Below, piece by piece: positions 3,331-25,513 of a DNA stretch of 38,664 bases. Each line of letters opens with the position of its first letter. Within the stretch, counting starts at the first letter, position 1. The position numbers and the translations under genes are program-made. Below the pieces are notes generated by a model. The model was not told where the DNA came from. It saw only the letters and a list, made by a program, of their open reading frames with translations, and did not search any database. Source of the DNA: Clostridia bacterium (lineage in GTDB: Bacteria; Bacillota; Clostridia; Lutisporales; Lutisporaceae); assembly GCA_029256365.1 (NCBI GenBank), contig JAQSYB010000002.1, forward strand, positions 1 through 38,664. Reading direction: 5' to 3'.

Positions 3331-3382
3331 ATATTAATATTTTGTAAATATTGTTAATATATTATAATTATATTAATATTTT
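3331..3382. promoter_or_regulatory. Direct repeats in the araC / binding-protein divergent control region
   Basis: The exact 13-mer atattaatatttt occurs at 3331-3343 and 3370-3382. The TTAATAT core is at 3334, 3354 and 3373 (20- and 19-bp phasing). A TATAAT follows at 3389-3394. Confidence 0.35.
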
Positions 3383-3444
3383 TAATTATATAATGTCAAT
3401 GAAAGTAAAAATACATAGATTGTATTTTGTGGAGGAGGCAAATC

Positions 3445-9809: not shown

Positions 9810-10046
9810 AAATTTCACGGCTATTTTTTATAGTTGTCTCATATATATAGAATAAGCCTAAACTTTAGAAAAATATTTTTCAGATTTTTCAGAAATAATT
9901 TTGAGGGTCTGAAGGATTTTACGAAGAAATGCCGTATATTAAAATATGTAAATTGAAATTAAAAACACCCATGGCAGGGATTGTCTGTCATGATGATTTT
10001 TAATGATCAATTGCTGCGTCATTTATAAATAACGTAAATGAAATTC

Positions 10047-10078
10047 GGCAAAAAGGCTAGTCCTTTTTGCCTTTTTTT
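10047..10078 (+). terminator. Orphan Rho-independent terminator about 50 nt upstream of the peptide-permease start (attenuator or end of a small transcript)
   Basis: 10-bp stem ggcaaaaagg / cctttttgcc, 5-nt loop, then seven T. No annotated gene ends here. Confidence 0.7.
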
Positions 10079-10129
10079 ATTTTATAAGGCATTTTGGCTG
10101 CTTGCATATCAATATTGGAGGTGCTGTGC

Positions 10130-11047
10130 TTGATAAAATACGTGATAAAAAGATTGTTTATATCAATTATTACAGTTTGGCTTCTTGCAACTATCGTATT
10201 TTTTCTTATCAGAATATTGCCGGGAGATCCATTCTCCGGGGATAAGATTACTCCTCAAATCAAGGAAAGTATGATGAAATATTATGAGCTCGATAAACCT
10301 TTACCGGTTCAATATGCAAAATATATGAAAAATCTACTTCAGGGAGAAATGGGATATTCTCTAAGATATAAGAACAGGACTGTGAATCAGGTCATAGCAG
10401 ATGCTTTTCCAAAGTCTGCAGATCTGGGGATTAGAGCACTTTTGCTTGCGATTCCGATTGGAATTCTGCTAGGTATATTTTCAGCCCTTCATCACAATCG
10501 ACTTTGGGACTATTTGTGTATGATCATCGCGGTGATTGGAGTATCCGTACCCAACTTTATAATAGGTGGAATGCTTCAATATACACTGGCTGTAAAGTTG
10601 AGAATTTTTCCTGTTGCAGAATGGAGAGGTTTTGAATATACAGTACTGCCTTCCATTGCTTTATCCCTAGGAACCCTAGCCTTGGTGGCAAGACTGATGA
10701 GAGCAAGCATGCTAGAGATTACAGGGCAGGACTATATCATCACTGCAGAAGCCAAAGGGCTGCCTATGATAAAAATCATATGGAAGCATTTAATAAGAAA
10801 TGCCATATTGCCTGTAGTTACTGTGCTTGGACCCATAGTAGCAGCCGTGGTAACAGGCACCTTTGTCATTGAGCAGATATTTGCGATTCCTGGTCTTGGC
10901 CGTCATTACGTACTGGGAATTCAAAATCTTGATTATACCCTTGTATTGGGTTTAACTATTTTCTTTGGTGCATTTGTTGTATTCATGAATTTTGTTGTAG
11001 ATATCATTTATGGATTGGTTGATCCAAGAATCAGGGTTGCGAAGTAA
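10130..11047 (+). CDS. Oligopeptide/dipeptide ABC permease (OppB/DppB-like)
   Basis: I place the start at TTG 10130, with GGAGGTG at 10117-10123. This gives the canonical N-terminus (M)IKYVIKRLF. The track start at 10094 has no RBS. Confidence 0.88.
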   Translation: MIKYVIKRLFISIITVWLLATIVFFLIRILPGDPFSGDKITPQIKESMMKYYELDKPLPVQYAKYMKNLLQGEMGYSLRYKNRTVNQVIADAFPKSADLGIRALLLAIPIGILLGIFSALHHNRLWDYLCMIIAVIGVSVPNFIIGGMLQYTLAVKLRIFPVAEWRGFEYTVLPSIALSLGTLALVARLMRASMLEITGQDYIITAEAKGLPMIKIIWKHLIRNAILPVVTVLGPIVAAVVTGTFVIEQIFAIPGLGRHYVLGIQNLDYTLVLGLTIFFGAFVVFMNFVVDIIYGLVDPRIRVAK

Positions 11048-11059
11048 GGAGGGGATAGT

Positions 11060-11977
11060 ATGGTTGAGGTTACCAGAGATCTTTTTGAACATATAGGTGT
11101 CGATGAAGGTTCTCAGGATGCAATTAGCAGGCCTAGTATCACATACTGGCAGGATGCTTGGAGAAGGTTAAAGCTGAATAAGGTTGCAATGATAGGTCTT
11201 GTGCTGCTTTCTATCTTCTCGTGCATGGCTATTTTTGGACCTTATATGACGGAGTTTACATATAATGCGAACAATTTGGATTATACCAATCAGCTTCCAA
11301 GTAAGAGTCATTGGTTTGGTACGGATGGACTTGGTAGAGACCTGTGGGCAAGGGTTTGGATGGGTGCCAGAGTATCGCTGTTTATTGGCTTAGCAGCAGC
11401 GGTAATTGAAACCTGCATAGGGGTAATCATTGGAGGTTTATCAGGTTATCTAGGCGGCAAAATTGATATGGTTATTATGAGATTTATCGACATTTTGATT
11501 TCTGTGCCGGATTTAATTTTCATTATTCTAATTATGGTGATTGTTGGGGCAGGAATTTTGCCCATTATCATAGCTTTTGCACTGACTGGCTGGCTTAGAA
11601 TGGCACGTCTGGTTAGAGGGCAGGTGCTCCAGATGAAGGAGCAGGAATTTGTTTTGGCTGCCAAAACACTCGGCGCAGGCACCATGCGATTGGTCTTTCG
11701 GCATTTGATTCCAAATACACTTGGTGTGATCATTGTTACTTTAACTATGGCGGTACCTGGAGCGATTTTTTATGAAGCTTTCTTAAGCTTCATCGGTATA
11801 GGTATAAAGCCACCTCTGGCCAGTTGGGGGCAACTGGCATCCTCCGGAGCAAAGGTATTACAGGTTTATCCTTTTGAACTAATCATACCTGCAATATTCA
11901 TAAGCTTGACGATGCTTTCCTTGAACCTTCTCGGTGACGGGTTGAGAGATGCATTGGATCCGAGATTAAGAAAATAG
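11060..11977 (+). CDS. Oligopeptide/dipeptide ABC permease (OppC/DppC-like)
   Basis: HWFGTDGLGRDLWARV motif and BPD_transp_1 core. AAGGAGGGG RBS. Confidence 0.88.
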   Translation: MVEVTRDLFEHIGVDEGSQDAISRPSITYWQDAWRRLKLNKVAMIGLVLLSIFSCMAIFGPYMTEFTYNANNLDYTNQLPSKSHWFGTDGLGRDLWARVWMGARVSLFIGLAAAVIETCIGVIIGGLSGYLGGKIDMVIMRFIDILISVPDLIFIILIMVIVGAGILPIIIAFALTGWLRMARLVRGQVLQMKEQEFVLAAKTLGAGTMRLVFRHLIPNTLGVIIVTLTMAVPGAIFYEAFLSFIGIGIKPPLASWGQLASSGAKVLQVYPFELIIPAIFISLTMLSLNLLGDGLRDALDPRLRK

Positions 11978-11990
11978 GGAGGTGCTTTGA

Positions 11991-12992
11991 ATGGGAAAAG
12001 AACGAATACTGGAATTAAATGACCTGCATGTTTCCTTCGACACATACTCTGGAGAGGTTCATGCTGTAAGGGGTGTATCCTTTCATTTGGACAAAGGGGA
12101 AGCAATCGCCATAGTTGGTGAATCTGGCTGTGGTAAAAGTGTAACAGCTAAATCTATTATGAAGCTTATACCAATGCCTCCAGGAAGAATCAAAAAAGGA
12201 AACATATTATTTAATGGCAAGGATATCACCAATTATACAAAAAAACAAATGGAAGTCATAAGAGGGTCAGAAATAGGTATGATTTTTCAAGATCCCATGA
12301 CATCCCTTTCACCTACAATGCTGGTAGGCAAACAAATTGCAGAAGGCTTGATACAACATCAGAAACTGTCAAAAAAACAAGCTCACACAAGGTCGATTGA
12401 AATGCTTAGAATGGTAGGTATTCCAAATCCCGATAAAAGAGTGAATCAATACCCACATGAGTTTAGCGGCGGGATGAGGCAGCGGGTCATGATTGCCATA
12501 GCCCTTGCCTGTAATCCTAAGGTGCTGATAGCAGACGAACCGACTACTGCTCTAGATGTTACCATACAGGCTCAAATACTTGATCTGATGAAGGAGCTTA
12601 AGAAGCAGATAGATACTTCAATTATTCTGATAACCCATGACCTAGGTGTTGTGGCAGGAATGGCTGACAGAGTATTGGTGATGTATGCAGGTAAGGTTGT
12701 AGAGTCAGGTAAGGTGGAGGAACTATTTAAGAACCCAAAGCATCCTTACACTGTGGGTTTGCTAAAATCTGTGCCAAGACTAGATCTGGAGAACAAGGAA
12801 GAGCTGATACCAATAAGCGGTACACCACCAGACCTGTTTGCACCTCCTACGGGCTGCGGCTTTGCGGCAAGGTGCGTTTACGCAATGAAGGTATGTTATT
12901 TGCTGCAGCCACAGACGGAAGAATGCGGGGAAGGGCATCATGCTGCCTGTTGGCTTCTACATCAATATGCTCCAGCAGTATCGTGGGTATAA
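11991..12992 (+). CDS. Oligopeptide/dipeptide ABC ATPase (OppD/DppD-like) with a Cys-rich C-terminal extension
   Basis: Walker A GESGCGKS, signature FSGGMRQR, Walker [12 protein letters not shown]. The oligo_HPY-type tail contains [15 protein letters not shown]...EC...AAC. Confidence 0.9.
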
Positions 12993-13024
12993 AAATATTG
13001 TAAATGCAAGGAAGAGAGGTTCTT

Positions 13025-14323
13025 ATGAATACGAAAGAATTGACAGCAATAAATGACAAAGGGCATATTGTTTTTGAGGGCTGCGATGTTGTTGAATTGG
13101 CAAATAAATATGGCACACCTCTTTACGTGGTCAGTGAAAGTGAAATACGAAAGAGATGTAGACGGATTCAGAAATATTTCACAAACAAATATACTGATAC
13201 CCAAGCATTATATGCTAGTAAGGCAATGAGCAGTCTTGCACTCTATAAAATCATTGAGGAAGAAGGCATGGGAATTGATGTAGTATCTGGTGGAGAGTTG
13301 TATACAGCGATTCATGGGGGCTTTCCTGCAGGAAACATCTATTTTCATGGAAACAACAAGACCCCAGATGAGATAAGGCTTGCAATAGACCATAATATAG
13401 GCTGTTTTGTAATAGACAATGAATATGAGATTGATTTGCTTCAAACCCTAGCATTTGAAAAGGGCAAGAAGGTGAAGGCTCTGCTTCGAATCACGCCTGG
13501 TGTCGCTGGTCATACCCATGCATATATTTCTACAGGGCAAGTAGATTCGAAGTTTGGCTTTTCAATTCAGGATGATATGGCATTGAAGGGGATTAAAAAA
13601 GCTTTGGATTGCCCGAATATCCATTTTGCAGGTGTTCACTGTCATATTGGCTCCCAAATTTATCGAACTGAGGCATATGTGGAAGCGGGGAAGGTAATGA
13701 CCACTTTGCTGCAGCGGATAAAACAAGAATTTGGCATTGTGGTGGAAGAGCTGAATATGGGAGGAGGCTTTGGTGTTTTTGATTATGAAGAAAATAAGCA
13801 TGTTGATATCATAGATTTCATTGATGCAATCATGGGCACGATAGAAGAGCAGTGCAGCATCAAAGATATCAACAGACCGAGAATAATCATTGAACCTGGA
13901 AGGTGGATTGCAGCGGAGGCAGGGATAACCCTTTATACTGTAGGAGCGATAAAAGAAATAAAAGGGGTACGCAAGTATGTAAGTGTTGATGGTGGAATGA
14001 CAGACAATCCGAGACACGCACTTTATCAGGCTGTTTATAGGGCTTTTGTAGCAAATAAAGCAGAAGAGCCTAAGACAGAAATCGTGACCATTGCTGGAAA
14101 GTGTTGCGAATCCGGGGACATATTAATTCGGAACTTGAAGGCTCCTGTCATGGAGGCTGGAGATATACTGGCTGTATATGGAACAGGGGCATATAACTAT
14201 TCCATGGCTAGCAACTACAATAGAATGACGAGGCCAGCCCTGATTATGGTCAAGGATGGAAAAGCCAAGGTAACGATTCGAAGAGAGAGCTATGAAGATT
14301 TATTAAGATATGAATTGCTTTAA
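13025..14323 (+). CDS. lysA: Diaminopimelate decarboxylase-like PLP enzyme (fold type III)
   Basis: YASKA (PLP lysine), GGGFG, EPGR, CESGD and GAYNYSMASNYN motifs. ATG 13025 is preferred over 13004 because gaagagagg lies upstream. Confidence 0.8.
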   Translation: MNTKELTAINDKGHIVFEGCDVVELANKYGTPLYVVSESEIRKRCRRIQKYFTNKYTDTQALYASKAMSSLALYKIIEEEGMGIDVVSGGELYTAIHGGFPAGNIYFHGNNKTPDEIRLAIDHNIGCFVIDNEYEIDLLQTLAFEKGKKVKALLRITPGVAGHTHAYISTGQVDSKFGFSIQDDMALKGIKKALDCPNIHFAGVHCHIGSQIYRTEAYVEAGKVMTTLLQRIKQEFGIVVEELNMGGGFGVFDYEENKHVDIIDFIDAIMGTIEEQCSIKDINRPRIIIEPGRWIAAEAGITLYTVGAIKEIKGVRKYVSVDGGMTDNPRHALYQAVYRAFVANKAEEPKTEIVTIAGKCCESGDILIRNLKAPVMEAGDILAVYGTGAYNYSMASNYNRMTRPALIMVKDGKAKVTIRRESYEDLLRYELL

Positions 14324-14375
14324 TATATGAATACCTCAAGTTTTAAGTATTGTGATTTGATGGGGGCGAATAGAT

Positions 14376-15728
14376 GTGGAGCTGGCGATAAACAATGGCT
14401 TGGTAATTGATCCAAAGAACAAGATGCATTCAAAGTTAAATATAGGAATTCGCAAGGGAAAAATAACAGAAATAACACAGAAAACACTGTCTGCTGAGGT
14501 AACAATTGATGCTTCAGGGATGATAGTAGCTCCAGGCTTCATAGACGCTCATATGCATGAAGGGAATTATAACAAGACATCTGACAGAATTGACACAGGG
14601 ATATTTGAATCCATGCTGAAAATGGGAGTTACAACAGGCATCGGGGGGAATTGCGGCTCAGGCCCCGAAGACCCTATTGATTACTTGGATGCAGCAGATC
14701 GTTTGGGCTTGCCAATCCATCTTGCATTGTTGGTACCTCATAATTCTTTGAGGCGTAAAGTAAAGGCAGTTGATAAATATCTTCCTGTAAATATTGCAGA
14801 TATTTATATCATGAGTAAGCAGGCTGAGAATTGGCTGAATTGTGGCTGCATTGGCATATCTTTTGGAATAAGGTATATACCTGGTATAGACAAGAATGAG
14901 CTTCATATCATATCCCAGGCTGCTGTGAAAAGCAGGAAAATAATCGCAGCACATATTAGGGATGATGCAGACATGGTGCTGCCATCCATCGTTGAACTAA
15001 TGGAGATTGCAGATGAATATAAAATACCAGTCCAGATTTCACATATAGGAAGTATGGGTGGTTATGGTCAGATGGATGAAGTTCTATCTTTCATTGATTT
15101 GAACAAGTCAAAGGGGCTTGATGTAGCAGCAGATTGTTATCCCTATTCTGCTTTTAGCACCTCCATAGGAGAAACAACCTATGACGAGGGCTTTTTAGAA
15201 CGATATCACACTTCCTATGACAAAATAGAGATTGCTGACGGACCTTATAGGGGAACCAGATGTAATGAAGAGCTTTTTAAAAAGCTGAGGGCTGAAGCTC
15301 CCGATATCATAACAATAGGGCATGTCATGCAGGAATCAGATGTTGAGAAGGCAATTGCCCACCCCGGAGTACTGATTGGGAGTGATGGTTTTATGTTTGA
15401 GGGTGCAGGGCATCCCCGTGCAGCTGGAACATTTCCAAGAGTTATTTCTGAGTATGTGAATAAGAGGAAGCTGATGAGTCTGAATGAAGCCATAAGCAAA
15501 ATGACATGGCAAACAGCTGAGCGTTTTGGTATACCTGGTGGAGAATTAAGTGTGGGATGCAACGCAGATATCGTAATCTTCGATGAGAAAAAGCTTGAAG
15601 ATCAAGCTACTTTTGAAAATCCTACACTGCCTCCAAAGGGAATAGAATTTGTATTGCTAAATGGAAAAGTAGCAGTTAGGGATGGAAGAATTATAAATCA
15701 TAACCTAGGCAGAGCAATCAGAAAGTGA
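14376..15728 (+). CDS. D-aminoacylase family amidohydrolase (N-acyl-D-amino-acid deacylase-like)
   Basis: GTG start. GFIDAHMHE (HxH), GGNCG, DCYPY and GSDG motifs match the D-aminoacylase branch of the amidohydrolase superfamily. Confidence 0.78.
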   Translation: MELAINNGLVIDPKNKMHSKLNIGIRKGKITEITQKTLSAEVTIDASGMIVAPGFIDAHMHEGNYNKTSDRIDTGIFESMLKMGVTTGIGGNCGSGPEDPIDYLDAADRLGLPIHLALLVPHNSLRRKVKAVDKYLPVNIADIYIMSKQAENWLNCGCIGISFGIRYIPGIDKNELHIISQAAVKSRKIIAAHIRDDADMVLPSIVELMEIADEYKIPVQISHIGSMGGYGQMDEVLSFIDLNKSKGLDVAADCYPYSAFSTSIGETTYDEGFLERYHTSYDKIEIADGPYRGTRCNEELFKKLRAEAPDIITIGHVMQESDVEKAIAHPGVLIGSDGFMFEGAGHPRAAGTFPRVISEYVNKRKLMSLNEAISKMTWQTAERFGIPGGELSVGCNADIVIFDEKKLEDQATFENPTLPPKGIEFVLLNGKVAVRDGRIINHNLGRAIRK

Positions 15729-15731
15729 TGA

Positions 15732-16070
15732 TTATAGCTCGAGAGGCTTACCGCTTTTAAAGTCGATGTATTTCTTTTGTGCATCCTTAAAAGCCACCAA
15801 AATAGCTTTTTGCGAGGAGCCAAGATAGCGCTGGGTAATTTGATTCTTAATGGTTTCGTAATCAGAGGTTATTTTTTCGCCAATCAAGATATCTTTTAAT
15901 ATTTTGTTTGTCAAAGATATAATGGCATTGCACTCTACATCGATAATCTTACTGCTTTCAATTTCTACAACGAAGCCGATAAAGAACTGACCATAGAGCT
16001 GAGTAATTGGATTATTCAGCTGAGATTTTGAATTTCCAACGATATAAAGTGAATTCTCGGGATAATTCAT
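15732..16070 (-). CDS. Small conserved-looking protein of unknown function (possibly DUF3870-like)
   Basis: The only minus-strand gene in the block. GAGGAGG lies 6 nt before the ATG at 16070 (the track starts at TTG 16085, inside the SD). No HTH, TM segment or signal peptide seen. Confidence 0.6.
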   Translation of the reverse strand: MNYPENSLYIVGNSKSQLNNPITQLYGQFFIGFVVEIESSKIIDVECNAIISLTNKILKDILIGEKITSDYETIKNQITQRYLGSSQKAILVAFKDAQKKYIDFKSGKPLEL

Positions 16071-16096
16071 ATTCATCCTCCTCAATAAGCAAGTTT

Positions 16097-16105
16097 ATTA
16101 TATCA
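16097..16105 (-). promoter_or_regulatory. Candidate extended -10 (TGaTATAAT) for the small minus-strand gene
   Basis: The minus strand reads tgatataat about 27 nt upstream of the ATG. The -35 is weak. Confidence 0.35.
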
Positions 16106-16233
16106 ACACTATACAATAAACTATAACAAATTGGTAGTAAATAGGAAGAATAATATTTTAACAAATTAATATGTAAGCGATGCTGTAAAGATGCAAAATC
16201 AAGTGAAATGATACAACGAAAGGTGGGTGTTGA

Positions 16234-17019
16234 ATGATAGAAAAGGTGATAAAAAGCGTATTGGAGACGATGGAGGGAGATTTTTCTATTATACTAAAAG
16301 ATTTGAAAAGTGGTAGGGTGTTATTTGAAAAGAATGCAGACAGACAAGTTCCATCAGCTAGTACGATCAAAATACCAATTATGATAGAAGCTTATAGATG
16401 TTTTTTAGCTGGAAGCTTGGATTTGAATGATAGAATTTCTATTGGCAATGAAAAAAAAGTAGAATTCAGCTTGATTACAGCAATGAACACAGACCACTAC
16501 ACAATAAGAGATTTAATACTTCTGATGATGACGATCAGTGACAACACAGCTACAAATATTCTGATTGAGATTCTAGGGATGGAAAACATAAACAAAATGA
16601 GCAGATCCTTGGGATTAGAGGGTACAATTCTTCAAAGAAAGATGATGGATTTTGAAGCTGCAAAGCAAGGCAGGCAAAATCTAACGGTACCTAGAGAAAT
16701 GTTGATGGTGATGGAAAAACTATATAAGAGTAAGATTCTAACAAAGGCGGCTTGTACTGAGATGTTGAAGATTATGAGCACTGTGGTATGCAGGGATTTT
16801 ATGATACGAGACCTGCCTGAGTATATCAAATGTGCTCATAAACCTGGTGAGTTAGAGGGAGTCAATCACGATGTAGGAATTGTCTTTGCATCAGCAACAG
16901 ATTATGTTCTGGGAATATTCGCCACTAGGCTGAAGGACAATATTTCTGGCAGAAATGATATCGCTCAACTGTCAAGAGTAATATTTGACCAAATAGATAG
17001 GTTAGGAGGACAAGAATGA
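16234..17019 (+). CDS. Class-A beta-lactamase-fold serine hydrolase, no signal peptide (predicted cytoplasmic)
   Basis: STIK (SxxK), SDN and KPG (KTG-like) motifs at class-A spacing. The N-terminus MIEKVIKSVLETMEG is not a signal peptide. Confidence 0.75.
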   Translation: MIEKVIKSVLETMEGDFSIILKDLKSGRVLFEKNADRQVPSASTIKIPIMIEAYRCFLAGSLDLNDRISIGNEKKVEFSLITAMNTDHYTIRDLILLMMTISDNTATNILIEILGMENINKMSRSLGLEGTILQRKMMDFEAAKQGRQNLTVPREMLMVMEKLYKSKILTKAACTEMLKIMSTVVCRDFMIRDLPEYIKCAHKPGELEGVNHDVGIVFASATDYVLGIFATRLKDNISGRNDIAQLSRVIFDQIDRLGGQE

Positions 17020-18089
17020 AGATTACAGATATTGAGATTATGGAGCTTAGCACTCCTCTCAAAAAGCCATTTAAGACAGCTCTTAGGCAGACCAGTGTAT
17101 CGGAAAGCATCATCGTAAAAATTTATACAGACGATGGTCAGGTCGGTTTTGGGAGTGCTCCTCCCACGGCTGCAATAACTGGTGATACCATTGATTCAAT
17201 AAGTGGTGCCATAGTGGATTTTATCGGTCCAGCAATAGGGGGAATGGATATAGAGGAATTTGAACCTATTATGCATAGGCTCCATGGTTCCATTTATCGC
17301 AACAGCAGTGCAAAGGCTGCCGTAGATATGGCTTTATATGATTTATATGGAAAGCATTTTAAGCTGCCATTATATAAGCTTTTTGGAGGGGCAAGGAGAG
17401 AGCTTGAATCGGATATTACTGTAAGTGTAAACTCACCTGAGGAAATGGCTGGGGATGCATCTGAATATATTAAAAGGGGCTATACTACCCTGAAAACAAA
17501 AGTAGGGGTAGACAGCAAGCTGGATATTTTAAGAGTAAAAAGCATTAGAGAAGCGGTGGGGATGGATATCAAGCTGCGCCTTGATGCAAATCAAGGGTGG
17601 AGTGCAAAGGAAGCTGTACGCACCATAAGAATTCTTGAGGACATGGGAATGGATATTGAGCTTGTAGAACAGCCAGTAAAAGCCCATGATATGGAAGGCT
17701 TGAAATATGTTACTGACAACGTAGATACTCCTATTATGGCGGATGAGTCATTGTTTATGCCTGAGGATGCATTCAGAATATTGAAGCTGAGAGCTGCTGA
17801 TATTTTGAACATTAAGCTTATGAAATGCGGAGGATTGCACAATGCCCTCAAGATAAATGCCATGGCAGAAAGCTGTGGAGTAGAGTGTATGCTGGGAAGC
17901 ATGATTGAGAGCAAAATAGGAATTACAGCAGCAGCGCATCTAGCATGCGGAAAGCTGAATATAACAAGAGTAGATCTAGATGCAGTGGACTTGATGGCAG
18001 AAGACCCCATAGAGGGAGGCGTAATCGTAACAGGCAGCAGACATGCAATACCTGAAGAATATGGTTTGGGAATAGTTGGATTGAAGTAG
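17016..18089 (+). CDS. ykfB: Dipeptide epimerase of the enolase superfamily (L-Ala-D/L-Glu epimerase-like)
   Basis: KTKVG, LDANQGW, VEQP, MADES and NIKLMKCGG carry the KxK / D / E / D / K catalytic set. PFKTALR is in the 20s loop. ATGA overlap with the upstream gene. Confidence 0.85.
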   Translation: MKITDIEIMELSTPLKKPFKTALRQTSVSESIIVKIYTDDGQVGFGSAPPTAAITGDTIDSISGAIVDFIGPAIGGMDIEEFEPIMHRLHGSIYRNSSAKAAVDMALYDLYGKHFKLPLYKLFGGARRELESDITVSVNSPEEMAGDASEYIKRGYTTLKTKVGVDSKLDILRVKSIREAVGMDIKLRLDANQGWSAKEAVRTIRILEDMGMDIELVEQPVKAHDMEGLKYVTDNVDTPIMADESLFMPEDAFRILKLRAADILNIKLMKCGGLHNALKINAMAESCGVECMLGSMIESKIGITAAAHLACGKLNITRVDLDAVDLMAEDPIEGGVIVTGSRHAIPEEYGLGIVGLK

Positions 18090-18102
18090 GGGGGTGAAAA
18101 AA

Positions 18103-18921
18103 ATGGAAAGAGCTATCGTGTTAAAAAGTGTAGCAGCGGTAAACCTGACACCAGATTTGAACAGTGAGCGTGCGGATGAAGTGCTCCATGGTATGGTGGT
18201 GGAGATATTAGATAAGCAGGAAGATCCTTGGTATAAGATAAAGACGAAATACGATTACTTTGGTTATATGCATAAAAATGATTTGCTCATGAATCAGAAT
18301 GAAGCCCTAAAATGGCTAAAAGAGAATTATACCATTCAAAGATTGATTGTGGATGTAATGTCTGAAGCGAAGTATGGAAGCAAAGTGACTGCAACCTTAA
18401 CAAAGGGCTGCTTGGTAAAGCATACAGGTATTTTTCAAGATAAGTGGGAAAAGATTGGATTGGCAGATGGAAGCTGGGGCTGGATTCGGATCGGCTTTGC
18501 ACATTCCTCTGAAGCCTTAGATACCAATACCAATGAAGAGGAGCTGCGCAAAAGGATTGTAGCAGTGAGCTTGGAATATTTGGATACACAGTATAGATGG
18601 GGAGGGAAAAGTCATTTTGGCATTGACTGCTCTGGATTGGCTTCCATGGCATATATGCTGAATGGTTTGCTGATTCCGAGAGACGTAGATCAACAGAGGG
18701 AATACTTAAGGCCCATTGCTAGAGATGAGGCAAAGCCTGGTGATTTATTTTTCTTCCCTGGGCATGTGGCTGTTTGTATTGGTGAAGGACGATATGTACA
18801 TGCAACAGGCAGAGAGGGCTATACCCTTATCAACAGCTTTCATAAGGGAAGTGAAGAGTATAGAGAGGATCTTGATCAGATACAGACCGGTACCGGTACA
18901 ATATTTGGAATGGAGGTCTAG
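18103..18921 (+). CDS. ykfC: SH3b + NlpC/P60 cysteine peptidase (gamma-D-glutamyl-L-diamino acid endopeptidase, YkfC-like)
   Basis: YRWGGKSHFGIDCSGL (catalytic Cys) and PGHVAVCIGEGRYVHA (His). No signal peptide. ATG 18103 preferred because a G-rich SD lies at 18088-18094. Confidence 0.82.
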   Translation: MERAIVLKSVAAVNLTPDLNSERADEVLHGMVVEILDKQEDPWYKIKTKYDYFGYMHKNDLLMNQNEALKWLKENYTIQRLIVDVMSEAKYGSKVTATLTKGCLVKHTGIFQDKWEKIGLADGSWGWIRIGFAHSSEALDTNTNEEELRKRIVAVSLEYLDTQYRWGGKSHFGIDCSGLASMAYMLNGLLIPRDVDQQREYLRPIARDEAKPGDLFFFPGHVAVCIGEGRYVHATGREGYTLINSFHKGSEEYREDLDQIQTGTGTIFGMEV

Positions 18922-18923
18922 CT

Positions 18924-19766
18924 ATGAAGAAGATTTATGTTTCTGTGGATTTAGAGGGTATAGGAGGTATCGTTAGTACAGAGCAAGTAGGGATTGTCGA
19001 AAATGTATTTTACGAAGAAGCTAGGAGGCTAATGGCAGGGGAAGCCAATGCAATCATTGAAGGGATAAACCTAGGGGGCGGTCTTGCTGTAATAGGCGAC
19101 TCCCATGGAAATATGCTAAATATTCCTATTGAGCTTCTAAAGGGAGATTTTCTACTATGCTGCGGCAGCGACAAAGCACTTTCTATGATGGGTGGAATGG
19201 ATGAAACCTATGATGGTGTGATGTTCTTGGGCTACCATGCACGTTTTGGTACACCAAATGCCATCATGGATCACACCTATAGTCCAACTACCCTAAGGGA
19301 GCTTAGAATAAATGGAAAACCTGTTGGGGAGACCGAGATAAATGCGGAGGTTGCAGGATATTTCAATGTACCTGTGCTATTGGCAACAGGGGATGATGTA
19401 ACCATGGAACAGCTTAGAATATCCTTTCCAAACATTGAAACGGTAACAGTAAAAAAGAGTATAGGCAGGTATTCAGCCTTATGTGAGCCCGTTGATAAAG
19501 TAAGGACAAAGATAAGAGATGCAGCAAGAAAGGTTACTGAGAACATAGAGAGCTATGGCTTCTTATATAAATCTAAGGCGCCAATAAAAATGGAATTTGA
19601 TTGGAACACTGCCATCATGGCGGAGGTGTGCACTTATGTGCCTGGAGTTGTGAGGAGCGGAGATCGATCAACCTCATACCAGTGTGATGATTATATCCAA
19701 GCCTTCAAGCTGTTTACAGTCCTAAGGAGACTTGCTAGCTCGGTAACAAATACATCTTATCTATAA
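18924..19766 (+). CDS. dppA: D-aminopeptidase, peptidase family M55
   Basis: The N-terminal MKKIYVSVDLEGIGGIV, GDSHGNM and GYHARFG motifs are typical of DppA. Confidence 0.85.
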   Translation: MKKIYVSVDLEGIGGIVSTEQVGIVENVFYEEARRLMAGEANAIIEGINLGGGLAVIGDSHGNMLNIPIELLKGDFLLCCGSDKALSMMGGMDETYDGVMFLGYHARFGTPNAIMDHTYSPTTLRELRINGKPVGETEINAEVAGYFNVPVLLATGDDVTMEQLRISFPNIETVTVKKSIGRYSALCEPVDKVRTKIRDAARKVTENIESYGFLYKSKAPIKMEFDWNTAIMAEVCTYVPGVVRSGDRSTSYQCDDYIQAFKLFTVLRRLASSVTNTSYL

Positions 19767-19828
19767 GATTTTAAATTACACTACTGGCTATAGGCCATCA
19801 TATAAACAAAATAAAGGGGGAAGCGTTA

Positions 19829-21481
19829 ATGAAAAAAAGTACATTTTCCATTTGCCTAGCTATGCTCTTGGCACTGAGTATTCTTCTGTCAGCATGTACT
19901 GCTAAAGTCCCAACCCAAGGAGATAACCTGCCTGCTGAGCCAACAGAAAAATCAATGAGGCTGACGATTGACTCAGAACCGCCAAACATTGATCCACAAA
20001 TTGGTACAGATTTGTACTCCATCATGATTGGTGGCCATGTACTGGAAGGTTTGGTACGTGTATATGATGGAAAAGTAATACCGGGTATTGCAGAGAAGTG
20101 GGATATCTCAACGGATGGACTTACATATACCTTCCATCTTAGAGACTCAAAATGGAGCGATGGCGTTCCTGTCACTGCACAAGACTTCTATTATTCCATC
20201 ATAAGATTGCTGGATCCTAAGACAGCTGCTGGCTATGCAGAGGTAATGGGATTCTACATCAAAAATGCCGAAAAATTCTATAATGGCGAGATAACTGACA
20301 AAGCACAGGTTGGTGTCAAGGTAGTTGATGAAAAAACCTTGGAAATTACACTGGAAAATCCAACAGGTTATTTCATAAGGCTATTAGGCTTTATGTGCTT
20401 CCTGCCAGCAAGGGAAGACATGGTAACAAAGCATGGAGAAGCTTATGCTTCAGAACCTGACAAAATGGTATTTAATGGACCATATATTGTGAAGGAATGG
20501 AAGCATGAAGAAGCAGTTGTATTGGCTAAGAATCCCAATTTCTGGGATAAGGATAAGGTAAAGATGGATATTATCGATCTGCCCATCGTTACGGAAGCAA
20601 CTACTGCAATCAATATGTATGAAACAGGTGAAATCGTTACAGCAGCAATTCCAGAGGAAATGCTGGACCAGTATATTCAGAATGGGAAGGCAAAGCTGAT
20701 GCCAAATGGAGGACTTTTCTGGCTTCAGTTTAATTTCAGCAGTAAGAGCAACGGTGACATTCTTGCAAACACAAACTTCAGAAAAGCTGTGTCCTATGCA
20801 ATTGACAGGGAATCACTAATGAAGGCAGTAGTAAAGCGCGGATTGCCAGCATCAAGGTATGTACCAAACAATATTATGGGTTTAAGTGATAAGTATGCCG
20901 CTGAGAATCCAATGGATGTTCTTCCAGCGAAAGCTGATACTGCCAAGGCGAAGGAATACTTTGAACTGGCACTGAAAGAGCTTAACCTCACTGCAGATAA
21001 ATTTCCTACGATTAAGCTTTTAGGAGCGGATTCATCATCAGCTAGAAAAGTCTGTGAGGCAGTGCAGGATATGCTTCTTAACAATTTAGGTGTAAAACTA
21101 GAGCTGATCAATGTTCCATCAAAGCAAAGACTGCAGCTCGTGAATGAAAGAGACTATGAGATGGCTTATGCAAATTGGTTCCCAGATTATGATGATCCAA
21201 TGACATATTTGGATGTATGGGTAACTGGCGGGGGCTTCAATCGTTCTGATTACAGCAACCCAAAATTTGATAGTCTGATAAAGGAAGCAAAGGCAGCAAC
21301 AGATGAGAAGGTTAGACAGCAGAAGATGTTAGAAGCAGAAAAAATACTAATTGAAGATATGACTGTTGTACCAGCGTATTGGGGTGCAAATGCATATGTT
21401 CAATCCGACAAGCTTGTGAACTATGTACGTTCCATGGTAGGAGCGGACCCAGATCTTACTTATGTCGATATAAAGGAATAA
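19829..21481 (+). CDS. Peptide ABC substrate-binding lipoprotein (family 5, OppA/DppA-type)
   Basis: Signal peptide with lipobox LSAC. 550 aa with typical SBP_bac_5 segments (GIAEKWDISTDGLTYTFHLR, WFPDYDDP). Confidence 0.88.
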   Translation: MKKSTFSICLAMLLALSILLSACTAKVPTQGDNLPAEPTEKSMRLTIDSEPPNIDPQIGTDLYSIMIGGHVLEGLVRVYDGKVIPGIAEKWDISTDGLTYTFHLRDSKWSDGVPVTAQDFYYSIIRLLDPKTAAGYAEVMGFYIKNAEKFYNGEITDKAQVGVKVVDEKTLEITLENPTGYFIRLLGFMCFLPAREDMVTKHGEAYASEPDKMVFNGPYIVKEWKHEEAVVLAKNPNFWDKDKVKMDIIDLPIVTEATTAINMYETGEIVTAAIPEEMLDQYIQNGKAKLMPNGGLFWLQFNFSSKSNGDILANTNFRKAVSYAIDRESLMKAVVKRGLPASRYVPNNIMGLSDKYAAENPMDVLPAKADTAKAKEYFELALKELNLTADKFPTIKLLGADSSSARKVCEAVQDMLLNNLGVKLELINVPSKQRLQLVNERDYEMAYANWFPDYDDPMTYLDVWVTGGGFNRSDYSNPKFDSLIKEAKAATDEKVRQQKMLEAEKILIEDMTVVPAYWGANAYVQSDKLVNYVRSMVGADPDLTYVDIKE

Positions 21482-21490
21482 AAGCTTTGA

Positions 21491-21527
21491 GAGGTGCTAT
21501 TCAAGCAGGATAGTACCTCTTTTTTTA
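21491..21527 (+). terminator. Rho-independent terminator of the peptide block
   Basis: 10-bp stem gaggtgctat / atagtacctc (one G-U pair), 9-nt loop, then eight T. Confidence 0.8.
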
Positions 21528-21564
21528 TTGCAAGCAATCCAATTATATTCCTGCTGCAATATTA

Positions 21565-21639: not shown

Positions 21640-22935
21640 TTGAAGAACAGAGTAAAAGAGGTTATGATGGTAGGGTTGTTTACTGCTCTGATGGGGCAGG
21701 TAAACTTTTATCCCTTTGGTACTGATTTTAGAATTACAATTGGAGTTGTAATGTTTTCTTTCCTCTTACTGTATTTTCATTCGGTTCCCATCATTGCCAC
21801 CGCAATTGTGACAGGGGTTTCTGTACTGTTTATTAGAATGGGATTTGACTTATTTGCCAATGAAGTAAGAGTTGATACAGCAATTTACAGGCATATACCT
21901 GCTATGATGTATTATATTTCCTATGGTATTATATTAGAGGCAGCAAGCTTTAGAAGATTCTTTGAAAAGCCCATTTATTTCATTACAATACTTACTACTG
22001 CGGATATCATGTCAAATTTTTTGGAGCTCTTGATTCGGAATCAATCCAATAGCAAATCTTTTGACGAGATTTTCTCAACGATTATGCTGGCGGCTGTAAT
22101 TCGGAGCAGTCTAGTACTGGCATTGTTTTGGATTATAAAATATTACAGCCTTTTTATTACAAAAGAAGAGCATCAGAAAAGGTATAAGGAATTGCTTCTG
22201 CTTACTGCAAAGCTTAAGTCCGAAGTTTTCTTTCTGAAAAAATCAATGCAGGATATTGAAGGTGCAATGGTTAAGAGTTATTCCATATACAATACCCTGA
22301 AGGAAAACGATACCATGTCTAAAGAAAATCTCAACAGGATTATGGCAGACAGTCTGAATTTATCTATAGACATACATGAAATAAAAAAGGACTATAATAG
22401 AATCGTAATCAGTATGGAAAAACTTATGCCGACAAGTGAAATAAGTAAGACCATGAAAATGAGTGAAATATTCGAGACCATTAATGATGTATTCACAAGA
22501 TATATAGAAGTAATCAATAGAGAAATCAAACTCAGGTTTGAAATAGATCGTGATTTCAAAACCAGCGAGTATTTTATCATAATGTCTGTACTGAATAATT
22601 TGATACAAAATGCGATTGAAGCATGTTATAGAAATGATTCCTACGTTAATGTAAGGTGTTTCATACAAGATAATATGGTGATTTTTCGCATTCAGGACAA
22701 TGGAAAAGGTATCAATGAAAAGGAACAAAGTCTTATTTTTGAGCCGGGATTTACTACGAAGTTTAATCCTGAGACAGGACAAGTATCTACTGGACTAGGA
22801 CTGGCACATATTAAGATATTGACGGAGCACTTAGAAGGAAGAGTTCGCTTGGTAAATGATGTAGAAGGTATGACAGAGTTTAGACTTGAGCTTCCAGAAG
22901 GTGTAATAATTTGCAAGGAGGATTGCGATGTCTAG
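21640..22935 (+). CDS. glnK: Membrane sensor histidine kinase, GlnK/YcbA-like
   Basis: About 170-aa polytopic N-terminus. H-box DIHEIKKDY, N-box LNNLIQNAIEA, G1 QDNGKGI, G2 GLGLAH. TTG start with AGGGGTG upstream. Confidence 0.7.
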   Translation: MKNRVKEVMMVGLFTALMGQVNFYPFGTDFRITIGVVMFSFLLLYFHSVPIIATAIVTGVSVLFIRMGFDLFANEVRVDTAIYRHIPAMMYYISYGIILEAASFRRFFEKPIYFITILTTADIMSNFLELLIRNQSNSKSFDEIFSTIMLAAVIRSSLVLALFWIIKYYSLFITKEEHQKRYKELLLLTAKLKSEVFFLKKSMQDIEGAMVKSYSIYNTLKENDTMSKENLNRIMADSLNLSIDIHEIKKDYNRIVISMEKLMPTSEISKTMKMSEIFETINDVFTRYIEVINREIKLRFEIDRDFKTSEYFIIMSVLNNLIQNAIEACYRNDSYVNVRCFIQDNMVIFRIQDNGKGINEKEQSLIFEPGFTTKFNPETGQVSTGLGLAHIKILTEHLEGRVRLVNDVEGMTEFRLELPEGVIICKEDCDV

Positions 22936-23821
22936 TTTTATTGTAATTGATGATGATATAAGTGTTAGAAGTGTCCTTACTAAGATAATTGAACAGTATA
23001 ATCTTGGTGATTTGTATGCTGAAGCCGATAATGGACTACTAGGAGAGGAACTAATATTAAGATATAAACCTGATATTGTGATGATAGATCTGCTGCTTCC
23101 TGAGCAGGATGGCATCTCCATAATTAAAAATATCAAGGCTTCCAACGTAAAGAGTATGTTTATTATGCTTTCTCAGGTCAGCGACAAGGATATGATAGCA
23201 AAAGCCTACGAATATGGAATAGAATTTTTCATAAGCAAGCCTATTAATGTCATTGAGGTTGTAAATGTTGTTAGGAAAGTAAATGAATATCTTTCTATGA
23301 AGAAAACCTTTGAAGCAATTGAATCTACGGCTTTGACCCTAGGTAGAAGCAGCATAGGGAATAATGGTAGAAAACTAGGAAATGCCAAGAGGGTATTAAA
23401 TCAACTGATGGCTGACCTAGGCATATTGGGAGATTTAGGCAGCAGAGATATTATAAATATTTCCACTATGCTTTATGATGATCCAGACTTGGGTGAATCC
23501 TTGGAGGAGACGCAGCTCAGCGAGTTGTTAAAGCTGCTGCAAAGCAAGTATTCTTCAGAGGGAAAAGCATCTACCAGTGATTTCAAGGCAATTGAGATGA
23601 GAATGAGAAGAACAGTTGGCAAAGCAATGAAAAATATTGCAGCTATGGGAATAGAAGACTTCAGCAATGACAAATTCATTCTTTATAGCTCCTCTTTATT
23701 TGATTATAGCGATATAAAAATGGAAATGGATTTTATAAGGGGCAAGGCTAAGTATGGCGGTAAAGTCAATATAAAGTCCTTTATTAAGAGATTGCTGGTA
23801 ATGTTAGAGCAAGGTGCATGA
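22928..23821 (+). CDS. glnL: Response regulator with REC plus a YcbB/GlnL-type output domain
   Basis: REC domain (IVIDDD...DIVMIDLLLPEQDG...K). The roughly 170-aa C-terminus is not OmpR, NarL, LytTR or AraC type and resembles GlnL/YcbB. 8-nt overlap with the kinase gene. Confidence 0.65.
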   Translation: MSSFIVIDDDISVRSVLTKIIEQYNLGDLYAEADNGLLGEELILRYKPDIVMIDLLLPEQDGISIIKNIKASNVKSMFIMLSQVSDKDMIAKAYEYGIEFFISKPINVIEVVNVVRKVNEYLSMKKTFEAIESTALTLGRSSIGNNGRKLGNAKRVLNQLMADLGILGDLGSRDIINISTMLYDDPDLGESLEETQLSELLKLLQSKYSSEGKASTSDFKAIEMRMRRTVGKAMKNIAAMGIEDFSNDKFILYSSSLFDYSDIKMEMDFIRGKAKYGGKVNIKSFIKRLLVMLEQGA

Positions 23822-23837
23822 TGAGTGGAAAAAGAAG

Positions 23838-23855
23838 TCAATTTTCTCAATTTTC
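23838..23855 (+). repeat. Perfect tandem 9-mer TCAATTTTC x2
   Basis: Read directly: tcaattttc at 23838-23846 and again at 23847-23855, upstream of the TAXI gene. Confidence 0.6.
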
Positions 23856-23886
23856 AAACCAACACATGTTAATTTGCGTTCCTTTC

Positions 23887-23916
23887 TGTTACTATGTGTT
23901 ACGAAGATTGTAGAAT
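23887..23916 (+). promoter_or_regulatory. Direct repeat TGTTAC-N4-TGTTAC overlapping the -35 position, followed by a TAGAAT -10
   Basis: tgttac at 23887-23892 and 23897-23902 (10-bp phasing). tagaat at 23911-23916. RBS agaggagggg at 23931-23940 and ATG at 23947. Confidence 0.45.
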
Positions 23917-23946
23917 TAAAATATCAAATTAGAGGAGGGGATTTTC

Positions 23947-24903
23947 ATGAAAAAGTACATAGTACTAGCTTTAGTCTTAGTATTCATATTATCCGTAGCT
24001 TTAACAGGCTGTGCGGCACCAAAGTCTAATCTTATATTAGCAACTGGTGGAACTTCAGGTACTTACTATCCATTTGGAGGCGCTATGGCGCAAATATTCA
24101 ACTCAAAGATAGCAGATATGAATGTAACTGCTCAATCAACTGGTGCTTCAGTTGAGAACCTTAAGCTTATAGGCAAGAAGGAAGCTGAATTAGCAATCGT
24201 TCAAAATGATATGACTGATTATGCTTACAATGGTTTAGAATCCTTTAAGGATGGCAAGATCGAAAATGTTAGAGCTATCGCAACACTATATCCAGAGGTA
24301 ATACAAATAGTTGCATCTGAAGATAGTGGAATCGTTACAATGAATGACATCAAGGGGAAGAAATTCTCTGTTGGTGCTCCAGGTAGCGGTGTTGAAGCAA
24401 ATGCTAGACAAATACTTGACGTTTTAACTATGACTTACGATGATTTCGCAGCAAACTATCTATCTTTTTCTGAGTCAGCAGATTCTTTAAAAGACAAGCA
24501 CATTGATGGTTTCCTATTTATGTCAGGTATCCCTAATGCAGCGATACAAGATACAGCTACAACATCAAAACTTAAGTTTGTATCACTTTCAGATGATGTA
24601 GTAACTCAATTGACAACTAAGTATCCTTTCTTTACTGCATTTACTATACCTGCAGGAACATACAATGGACAAGATACAGATGTTAAAACTGTAGCAGTTA
24701 AGGCTACTTTAATAGTTGGTGCAGAAGTATCAGAAAAAGTTGTATATGATTTAACAAAAGCTTTATTTGAAAACCAACCAGAATTGGCAACAGGCCATGC
24801 AAAGGGCAAAGAGTTAAATCTTACAGATGCAGTACAAGGTATATCAGTTCCATTCCACCCAGGTGCTGAGAAGTACTATAAGGAAGTTGGAGCAATTAAG
24901 TAA
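23947..24903 (+). CDS. TRAP transporter solute receptor, TAXI family (lipoprotein)
   Basis: Lipobox LTGC. LATGGTSGTYYPFGGAMAQ and HPGAEKYYKE are typical TAXI motifs. Confidence 0.88.
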   Translation: MKKYIVLALVLVFILSVALTGCAAPKSNLILATGGTSGTYYPFGGAMAQIFNSKIADMNVTAQSTGASVENLKLIGKKEAELAIVQNDMTDYAYNGLESFKDGKIENVRAIATLYPEVIQIVASEDSGIVTMNDIKGKKFSVGAPGSGVEANARQILDVLTMTYDDFAANYLSFSESADSLKDKHIDGFLFMSGIPNAAIQDTATTSKLKFVSLSDDVVTQLTTKYPFFTAFTIPAGTYNGQDTDVKTVAVKATLIVGAEVSEKVVYDLTKALFENQPELATGHAKGKELNLTDAVQGISVPFHPGAEKYYKEVGAIK

Positions 24904-24914
24904 TTAGGAGGATT

Positions 24915-24950
24915 GCCGGGCTGGAAATATCCGGTCCGGCTTCTTTATTT
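24915..24950 (+). terminator. Intercistronic hairpin or partial terminator after the TAXI gene
   Basis: 10-bp stem gccgggctgg / ccggtccggc (two G-U pairs), 6-nt loop, T-rich tail ttctttattt that abuts the next ATG. Confidence 0.5.
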
Positions 24951-25451
24951 ATGAAAAAGAATGCATCGATACTAAGTTTTCTTATATTATGTATCATTAT
25001 TTTGAATATACCAATGTTTAGCAAGTTTACGATTTCCCATGGTAAAACTGGAGAAATCGTTTATGTTGATGATATTGAAGAAGCGAAGGAGTTTGTAATA
25101 AGCTTCAAGCATTCAGTAAATCGTACCCTAGTCAATGAGTTCATAAAGATACAAGGAAATAAATTTTTAGTTTACAAAACCACTTTCTATTCATATGGGG
25201 CAGGTATGCCTGAGTATGATCCGGGAAGCGGACAGAAGTTAACAATCGTTGACGGACTTGTTCAGATTGAAAATATAGACAGGGAGCTTGAGGATTTTAC
25301 CTATTTAGTGGGAACCTATGCAGATCACGCACTAAGCTATGGAGATAAGAGCATGAAGCTTTCACAGTATATTGAACCGCAGAATCCTGCATTTTTCAGT
25401 ATAGATAAAATGACGCTCTTTGAATTAATAAAATATAAATTAAGAAAATAA
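24951..25451 (+). CDS. DUF1850-family protein (function unknown, TAXI-TRAP associated)
   Basis: One N-terminal TM segment. FKHSVNRTLVNEF motif. Sits between the TAXI receptor gene and the fused permease gene. No obvious SD. Confidence 0.75.
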   Translation: MKKNASILSFLILCIIILNIPMFSKFTISHGKTGEIVYVDDIEEAKEFVISFKHSVNRTLVNEFIKIQGNKFLVYKTTFYSYGAGMPEYDPGSGQKLTIVDGLVQIENIDRELEDFTYLVGTYADHALSYGDKSMKLSQYIEPQNPAFFSIDKMTLFELIKYKLRK

Positions 25452-25513
25452 GTAACTGTAAAGATATCATCTGAAGATTCTTTTCAGAATGAAGTAAATT
25501 GAGGAGGGATTTC

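Follow-up and report, generated by a model that had tools for sequence, protein, structure and literature searches.

A two-operon gene block of a Lutisporaceae bacterium with a probable role in the uptake and cytoplasmic breakdown of peptidoglycan stem peptides

Contig JAQSYB010000002.1 of a Clostridia bacterium (Lutisporaceae; assembly GCA_029256365.1) carries an 11-kb block at positions 10130-21481 in which the genes of an Opp-type importer stand among genes for peptide-processing enzymes, and the question arises what such a set is for and whether it acts as one unit. The contig comes from a metagenome (JGI 3300042922). The whole stretch analysed, here called the window, comprised 38,664 nt, and the ORFs (open reading frames) of the island were scored against the Pfam gathering scores and the NCBIfam cut-offs. 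The block is real: the ten genes named in a preliminary description of the sequence were all found on the plus strand, and profile hidden Markov model searches returned exactly the predicted Pfam domains, in all ten ORFs far above the gathering scores. Judged from its sequence, the block is probably a two-operon module by which free stem peptides of peptidoglycan are taken up and broken down in the cytoplasm. The description had likewise related it to the murein-peptide uptake and catabolism genes dpp-ykf of Bacillus subtilis, with which the coherent gene set and its YkfB and YkfC signatures agree; the DUF3870 gene, the leader RNA upstream of position 10130 and the loss of Glu166 and Asn170 from the beta-lactamase-fold protein, all treated below, lay outside its account.

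The left half of the block was found to contain an OppB/DppB-type permease gene (BPD_transp_1; 10130-11047, +; the ORF opens at 10094, with the likely start at TTG 10130 after GGAGGTG), an OppC/DppC-type permease gene (OppC_N and BPD_transp_1; 11060-11977, +) and an OppD-type ABC ATPase gene (ABC_tran and oligo_HPY; 11991-12992, +), which is the sole nucleotide-binding domain (NBD) gene of the block, followed by the genes for the diaminopimelate (DAP) decarboxylase LysA (Orn_Arg_deC_N and Orn_DAP_Arg_deC, TIGR01048; 13004-14323, +) and for a D-aminoacylase-family, N-acyl-D-amino-acid deacylase-like metallo-amidohydrolase (Amidohydro_3/1; 14376-15728, +). The right half was found to contain the genes for a class-A-beta-lactamase-fold, PBP-A-like serine hydrolase predicted to be cytoplasmic (Beta-lactamase2; 16234-17019, +), a YkfB-type L-Ala-D/L-Glu epimerase of the enolase superfamily (MR_MLE_N/C; 17016-18089, +), a predicted cytoplasmic gamma-D-Glu-L-diamino-acid endopeptidase of the YkfC or dipeptidyl-peptidase-VI type (SH3_3/SH3_16 and NLPC_P60; 18094-18921, +), a peptidase M55 of the DppA D-aminopeptidase type (Peptidase_M55, E=1.9e-81; 18924-19766, +) and an OppA/DppE-like family-5 solute-binding lipoprotein (SBP_bac_5, lipobox LLSAC; 19829-21481, +), and it is closed by an intrinsic terminator with a 14-bp stem and a T run (21489-21530, +). 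Between the halves lies a minus-strand gene for a DUF3870 protein of 112 aa (15732-16070, -; Pfam E=7e-33; good ribosome-binding site), which is convergent with the amidohydrolase gene and divergent from the beta-lactamase-fold gene across an intergenic region at 16086-16233, and which divides the block into two operons. The single NBD, the solute-binding protein (SBP) at the far end and the added decarboxylase and D-aminoacylase-like enzyme were thus as described, by ORF, Pfam and NCBIfam evidence alike; of the one co-localised block, the co-location stood, whereas the uninterrupted co-directional run was broken by the DUF3870 gene. The transporter itself is split, with the permeases and the ATPase on the left and the SBP on the right.

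The epimerase was found to match B. subtilis YkfB (1JPM/1TKK) with 415 bits and about 60% identity and to keep Arg24, which binds Glu, the KxK motif (K-T-K), Lys268 (IKLMK), the three metal ligands and the DxD motif (D-L-D), and it is here treated as a genuine L-Ala-D/L-Glu epimerase. The NlpC/P60 protein was found to align over its full length with the Bacteroides dipeptidyl-peptidase VI structures and to contain two SH3b domains, with SH3_16 above the gathering score. The residues of the YkfC subfamily are a Cys-His-His triad, Tyr226/Trp228/Asp237/Ser239, Asp256 and an SH3b tyrosine (PMC2954226). The window protein was found to contain Y-x-W, D-C-S, R-D (Asp256) and the two His of this type, with the signature QYRWGG, GIDCSGL, IPRD, GHVAV and YVHAT; the SH3b Tyr was assigned by eye only (FGYMH), and position 257 is occupied by Val, not by Ser, Ala or Thr. 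No signal peptide was found in the protein, which starts straight at the mature domain.

LysA was found to match TIGR01048 over its full length with 468.8 bits against an equivalog cut-off of 297.9, and it is the only protein of the block to pass an NCBIfam equivalog cut-off, the rest lying below. The amidohydrolase was found to match the Alcaligenes D-aminoacylase 1M7J (E=5e-50) and the N-acyl-D-Glu deacylase 3GIP, with FIDAHMH, GGNCG, AAHIRDD, QISHIGS, GSDG and CYPY aligned to 1M7J, and to keep the HxH, bridging Cys, two His and Asp metal ligands together with the YPY motif, the motif list for deacylases of N-acyl-D-amino acids, an amidohydrolase subtype with a bridging Cys, being taken from PMC12149444. 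The window enzyme shares this subtype, all of the metal ligands and YPY with those deacylases; at ~450 aa it belongs to a distinct subfamily of Clostridia and Tissierellia, the genes of which, unlike those of the known enzymes, are linked with peptide transporter genes and with LysA or DAP dehydrogenase genes. Its gene adjoins lysA in the window and in the related loci L083, L084 and L212, lies in the same cluster as lysA in L085 and L210, and has meso-DAP dehydrogenase domains beside it in L213; next to LysA or meso-DAP dehydrogenase, it occurs in four independent arrangements. D-aminoacylases cut acyl-D-amino-acid bonds, and relatives of theirs reportedly also hydrolyse L-Xaa-D-Xaa dipeptides. 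Because of the recurrent linkage to an enzyme that consumes meso-DAP (mDAP), the amidohydrolase would most economically be taken to release free mDAP, for example from the mDAP-D-Ala remaining after a YkfC cut of the tetrapeptide; alternatively, its substrate may be L-Ala-D-Glu.

The alternative that survives best is that these enzymes serve a general import and catabolism of environmental D-amino-acid oligopeptides and are not specific to peptidoglycan. Opp/Dpp systems and M55 peptidases accept a broad range of substrates, specificity is diverse among the dipeptide epimerases of this family, DUF3870 genes were also found beside S58, M19 and M20 peptidases and other transporters, and the beta-lactamase-fold genes of Acidobacteriota often occur without murein genes, all of which would fit such a role. 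[quoted passage not shown]

Conservation of the block was examined in 80 genome loci anchored on the beta-lactamase-fold family, with the window proteins mapped by tblastn and by unbiased ORF clustering; in the nearest species-representative genome, of Lutispora, the beta-lactamase-fold protein was only 49% identical. Among 24 Firmicutes loci, the NlpC/P60 gene was a neighbour of the anchor, at a distance of up to 10 kb, in 18/24, the Opp-type ATPase and the SBP5 genes each in 15/24, the permease and the epimerase genes each in 13/24, and the DUF3870 and M55 genes each in 11/24, followed by LysA (5/24) and the amidohydrolase (4/24). A gene order not conserved in related genomes had been named as grounds for refuting the preliminary description, and this refutation failed: the complete 11-gene order was found in the metagenomic loci L083 (66% on the beta-lactamase-fold protein; 741-kb contig) and L084 (74%), and the same families were found reshuffled in L085 and L210. 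The L083 island lies between ackA and yceD-plsX-fabH whereas the L084 island has the sugar-operon flanks of the window, two chromosomal sites which imply that the block moved as a unit. L085 (54%) was found to contain the families in a different order with a sigma-54 activator and a second NBD, and genes of both halves are interleaved in L085 and L210. L214 (63%, at the L083 site) was found to contain the permeases, two NBDs, DUF3870, the beta-lactamase-fold gene, the epimerase, NlpC/P60 and the SBP, and to lack lysA, the amidohydrolase and M55. The core of the module is so the transporter, DUF3870, the beta-lactamase-fold gene, the epimerase and NlpC/P60, and LysA, the amidohydrolase, M55, S66 and M20 are accessory to it. 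The second NBD, absent from the window, is present in L085 and L214, and oppF occupies in L214 the place where the window lineage has lysA and the amidohydrolase gene; the single NBD is a derived state of the window lineage. Lutispora was found to keep only the right-hand operon with a divergent DUF3870 gene.

The Opp-type ABC importer was found to be replaced by a DcuC/NhaC-like carrier of the ion-transporter superfamily in Negativicutes and some Clostridia. This carrier lies beside epimerase, beta-lactamase-fold or amidohydrolase genes in L062 (2422-3714), L207 (8527-9987) and L212 (10368-11798), and between the epimerase and the beta-lactamase-fold gene in L074 and L080.

A conserved leader RNA (9964-10081, +) was found directly upstream of the first permease gene, and the 290 nt before that gene hold a hairpin and a strong intrinsic terminator. 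The leader contains a P1 hairpin (9970-9992), which is variable among the instances, followed by a P2 antiterminator (~10011-10051), in which UGCUG..UCAUUUAU is paired with GUAAAUGA..CGGCA, and a terminator (10047-10071) with a T7 run, whose 5' arm is the 3' strand of P2, so that the two helices are mutually exclusive. In RNAfold, P2 was formed with the 3' arm of the terminator withheld and the terminator was formed with that arm present (z = -3.7 and -4.0). Across 11 distinct strand pairs, a small sample in an alignment that was hand-trimmed and in a register chosen by the analyst, 97.2% of the P2 cells were paired and 5/13 pairs were changed on both sides, against 33-50% paired in slid controls; this covariation is supportive of an antiterminator/terminator switch, not conclusive. 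A promoter-like block upstream (9905-9945, +; CTGAAGGATTT ... GCCGTATATT), conserved with L083 and L084, was assigned with low confidence; a consensus scan placed the promoter site at 9918-9945, and the exact -35 and -10 hexamers are uncertain.

The leader was found to be conserved block by block in L083 and L084 whereas the surrounding intergenic DNA was not. A covariance model built from 11 instances gave 111.6 bits for the window leader, 108.5 bits upstream of the first permease gene and 74.1 bits upstream of the beta-lactamase-fold gene in L214, and 73.7 bits between lysA and DUF3870 in L085. Leaders thus stand before both halves in L083 (3471-3588 and 9819-9970) and in L214 (5164-5280 and 9824-9961), followed by single instances in L085 (9403-9521), L003 (4277-4394), L004 (9849-9966) and L005 (9850-9966), and the motif precedes the beta-lactamase-fold gene in L083 and in three Lutispora loci. 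Weak matches lie between DUF3870 and the epimerase or transporter gene in Sporomusa, Propionispira, Thermovenabulum and the metagenomic L207. Among the matches listed from a metagenome pattern scan, L091, L107, L129, L160, L204 and L205 contain genuine leaders, the rest being mostly chance or coding matches. None of the 4227 Rfam families matched the window at the gathering threshold, the segment 9780-10140 gave only noise at E<=1, and no Rfam match was found at the leader positions in seven related loci. The leader is accordingly a candidate for a new riboswitch or protein-dependent attenuator. Attenuation by a leader peptide was rejected, as the short ORF in P1 differs in frame or length among the window, L083 and L084.

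Two further leader copies were noted. At L084 1697-1814 an extra copy precedes genes at 2050-2904 and 2974-3543 (284 and 189 aa; no Pfam family), by which the leader regulon extends beyond the island. At L204 the leader (3365-3480) is fused to a 60-codon 3' lysA remnant (3177-3359, -), followed by a convergent DUF3870 gene and then the epimerase and NlpC/P60 genes without a beta-lactamase-fold gene; this locus is a deletion derivative of a window-type island.

In place of the leader, leaderless loci were often found to have a sigma-54 activator. In L006, L010, L014, L085, L210, L211 and L212 the same enzymes are accompanied by sigma-54 enhancer-binding proteins, some of which contain PAS domains, apparently as another way of controlling the module. 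A sigma-54 promoter in the window leader was rejected: no GG-N10-GC was seen by eye, and the activators go with leaderless loci.

The next alternative, that two unrelated operons merely adjoin each other, with the permease, lysA and amidohydrolase genes on the left and the beta-lactamase-fold, epimerase, NlpC, M55 and SBP genes on the right, draws on the opposite-strand gene and the 148-bp promoter region between the halves, on the Lutispora loci with the right half only, and on the right half of the window, which is leaderless. It is held to be improbable, as the left permeases and ATPase have no SBP of their own and the right SBP has no permease, both halves travel together to two chromosomal sites, the same leader stands on both halves in L083 and L214, and the genes of both halves are interleaved in L085 and L210. 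The recurrence at two sites, the shuffled order in a distant relative and the same leader before both halves support the block as one functional unit. No terminator was found after the amidohydrolase gene, the stop of which lies 3 nt from the DUF3870 stop, so that transcription may continue over the antisense DUF3870 gene into the right operon.

The beta-lactamase-fold protein belongs to a family of ~260 residues without signal peptide, with 605 homologues at E<=1e-10. In the window protein the motifs S43-T-I-K46, S102-D-N and K203-P-G were found; SxxK and SDN are invariant in the family, followed by a K-[TPS]-G motif with the consensus K-T-G. In an hhalign profile alignment to TEM-1, position 166 (TEM-1 numbering) was found to be occupied by an invariant Met instead of Glu166, and position 170 (Asn170) falls in a gap. 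The N-terminus starts straight at the mature domain with no signal peptide, and NCBIfam bla_class_A NF033103 gave 111.9 bits, under the cut-off of 200. The best solved relatives are 4EWF and 4HES, both uncharacterised structural-genomics entries, and the cyanobacterial PBP-A 2J7V (E=1e-21); the nearest characterised relative is thus the DD-peptidase PBP-A. PBP-A is a DD-carboxy/endopeptidase which is also without the omega-loop Glu (PMC11189452). The fold, the SxxK, SDN and KTG-like motifs and the missing omega-loop Glu are common to PBP-A (Tll2115 of Thermosynechococcus elongatus) and the window protein, whereas PBP-A is membrane-anchored and periplasmic and acts on the sacculus, and the window protein has neither signal nor anchor and lies in a cytoplasmic catabolic operon. 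On account of the missing Glu166 and Asn170 and of the kinship with PBP-A, the window protein, by its sequence, is not a beta-lactamase and is plausibly a DD-peptidase working in the cytoplasm; the class-A fold and the missing signal peptide agree with the cytoplasmic class-A beta-lactamase fold of the preliminary description. A beta-lactam-related or lysine-biosynthetic locus, with the class-A fold as a resistance enzyme or sensor and LysA as a nearby housekeeping gene, is very improbable despite the Pfam Beta-lactamase2 match, the weak NCBIfam class A match and the full LysA equivalog, given the missing signal peptide, the family-wide loss of Glu166 and Asn170, the 111.9 bits against 200, the consistent adjacency of the beta-lactamase-fold gene to YkfC-type peptidases and the lack of further lysine-biosynthesis genes in the window.

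The beta-lactamase fold had also been taken to stand in the locus instead of an S66 LD-carboxypeptidase. The lack of S66 was borne out: tblastn with E. coli LdcA (E<=0.01) gave no match anywhere in the 38.6-kb window, whereas the same search matched eight other loci. In those eight (L006, L009, L011, L013, L017, L028, L054 and L072) an S66 LdcA homologue was found in the same locus as the beta-lactamase-fold gene, which it directly adjoins in 5/8 (L013, L017, L028, L054 and L072), and both genes were found in L210 (Alkaliphilus pronyensis). This co-presence contradicts the substitution: the beta-lactamase-fold enzyme is an activity additional to S66, and the two would most naturally act in series, with DD-trimming before LD-trimming. 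The amidohydrolase was likewise rejected as a substitute for S66, and its link to mDAP-consuming enzymes was preferred; in the first 12 informative loci the two genes seemed complementary, but both occur in L210 and L212.

DUF3870 was found to be more conserved than the surrounding enzymes (77-86% in L083/L084 versus 66-74% for the beta-lactamase-fold protein). In other genomes its gene always has genes of D-peptide or dipeptide catabolism at its side, and usually the leader as well; the neighbours include peptidases of the S58, M19 and M20/M28 families, DcuC-like carriers, dipeptide epimerases and a chemoreceptor whose sensor domain is of the SBP5 type. AlphaFold predicted a beta3-alpha3 fold with confidence (pLDDT 87.5), for which the PDB held no significant neighbour; the best Foldseek match there had E=0.015 and a TM of about 0.4-0.5 (IscU-like or enolase-N-terminal-like beta3-alpha3), and phmmer gave no match in the PDB. 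DUF3870 is proposed as a conserved accessory or regulatory partner of the module; the regulatory role, made attractive by the near-constant adjacency to the leader, is speculation. The chemoreceptor, a methyl-accepting chemotaxis protein with an SBP_bac_5 sensor domain, was found in L208 (2518-5019) and L209 (3733-6246) adjoining an M20/M28 peptidase, a dipeptide epimerase and DUF3870, and it may sense the same peptides.

The route proposed for the stem-peptide module is based on homology and gene linkage, from which every substrate and the order of the reactions are inferred. The lipoprotein SBP would bind stem peptides outside the cell, and the OppB/C-like permeases with the single OppD-like ATPase would import them. 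The PBP-A-like serine hydrolase would then trim D-Ala-D-Ala-type ends or open D-Ala-mDAP cross-bridges, followed by a YkfC-type cut yielding L-Ala-D-Glu and either mDAP or mDAP-D-Ala. The YkfB-type epimerase would turn L-Ala-D-Glu into L-Ala-L-Glu, a substrate for housekeeping dipeptidases, and the D-aminoacylase-family metallohydrolase would cut the acyl-D-amino-acid bond, most likely of mDAP-D-Ala (alternatively of L-Ala-D-Glu), freeing mDAP for conversion to L-lysine by LysA. The M55 D-aminopeptidase would clear peptides with N-terminal D-Ala, e.g. D-Ala-D-Ala. The terminator/antiterminator leader RNA would gate the first operon, and the second would have a promoter of its own or, as no terminator lies between the operons, be reached by transcripts that continue over the antisense DUF3870 gene.

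Several observations weigh against this reading. The amidohydrolase scores 238.6 on NCBIfam PRK09061, below the cut-off of 340, and the M55 protein 182 bits on the NCBIfam DppA equivalog, below the cut-off of 430. Only one NBD gene is encoded. Neither an L-Ala-L-Glu dipeptidase nor an S66 LD-carboxypeptidase is encoded in the window, and the route to free L-Ala and L-Glu therefore needs a housekeeping enzyme; of the complete path to L-Ala, L-Glu and L-Lys that had been drawn on paper, a LysA is encoded and a dipeptidase is not. LysA could simply be the housekeeping copy of the organism. Most of the Acidobacteriota homologues of the beta-lactamase-fold gene were found without murein-peptide neighbours, a subset having the epimerase and NlpC/P60 genes, and the family is thus not exclusively tied to a murein-peptide pathway. 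No leader was found for the right-hand operon at 16086-16233, unlike in L083, L214 and Lutispora, so that co-regulation in the window rests on presumed read-through.

A wider reading, offered tentatively and with clearly less confidence than the module itself, would join these elements. The leader would sense peptidoglycan turnover as an RNA of a new class, either as a riboswitch for a murein metabolite (mDAP, L-Ala-D-Glu or the tripeptide) or as the target of DUF3870, which would prevent or promote termination in response to a ligand; the two operons would be coupled by antisense transcription over DUF3870; and two enzymes missing from the stem-peptide catabolism of Gram-positive bacteria, a cytoplasmic DD-peptidase and an mDAP-D-Ala dipeptidase, would be found in the PBP-A-like hydrolase and the D-aminoacylase-like enzyme, respectively.

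The flanks were found to be unrelated to the island, which is preceded by a sugar ABC/GH65/HAD operon and followed by genes for a histidine kinase, a YcbB-type regulator and a TAXI-TRAP transporter. The downstream set (21640-27466), comprising the histidine kinase, the YcbB(GlnL)-type response regulator and the transporter (NMT1_3, DUF1850 and a fused DctM), is an insertion relative to the syntenic L084 and lies outside the island. The kinase and regulator (21640-23821) were rejected as island regulators, since they are not beside the island in L083, L084 or L214. Upstream of the sugar operon lie a PAS-GAF-HD (HD-GYP-like) signalling protein (954-2471, -) and an AraC-type regulator (2605-3315, -), both unrelated to the island. 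The G+C content of the island (11000-21000) was 0.40-0.43, above the 0.32-0.38 of most flanking sequence; in relatives the island occupies two chromosomal sites, and neither an integrase nor a transposase was visible.

The reuse of, and feeding on, peptidoglycan peptides in Gram-positive and anaerobic bacteria is poorly mapped beyond E. coli and B. subtilis, and the module nominates candidates for missing steps: a PBP-A-like enzyme as a DD-peptidase of the cytoplasm, an enzyme of the D-aminoacylase family for what is probably the freeing of mDAP, and a dedicated LysA turning wall-derived mDAP into lysine. The compact leader, absent from Rfam, could be an RNA element that responds to cell-wall fragments, and would then be the first one known, and the uncharacterised family DUF3870 is given a genomic context. 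The widespread 'class A beta-lactamase' family of this type should not be annotated as a resistance gene in metagenomes. A literature search gave no account of this arrangement, of DUF3870 in such a role or of a PBP-A-like enzyme that takes part in stem-peptide catabolism in the cytoplasm; on related topics it returned only work on B. subtilis, B. cereus and PBP-A.

Of the known systems, the murein-peptide catabolic cluster dppABCDE-ykfABCD of B. subtilis (PMC2954226, PMC3305447) comes closest, and the block is most likely a richer, conserved variant of it. An importer of the Dpp/Opp type with a family-5 SBP, an M55 peptidase of the DppA type, a YkfB-type epimerase and a YkfC-type endopeptidase predicted to be cytoplasmic are co-located in both, whereas the window block is without the S66 enzyme YkfA and the second NBD YkfD and adds the PBP-A-like serine hydrolase, the D-aminoacylase-family amidohydrolase, LysA and DUF3870. 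It differs further in the SBP gene, which stands last, in its two operons with an antisense gene between them, and in the control by a terminator/antiterminator leader. The murein tripeptide route of E. coli (MppA/Opp, LdcA, MpaA, YcjG, PepD and LysA) follows the same logic of import, release of mDAP and L-Ala-D-Glu, epimerisation, hydrolysis and passage of mDAP to LysA; its genes, however, are scattered, its endopeptidase is the metallo-carboxypeptidase MpaA and not an NlpC/P60 protein, and its LysA lies outside any recycling operon. With riboswitches, T-box leaders and protein-dependent attenuators the window leader shares mutually exclusive helices directly before an operon, whereas it matches no Rfam family and is replaced by sigma-54 activators in some relatives.

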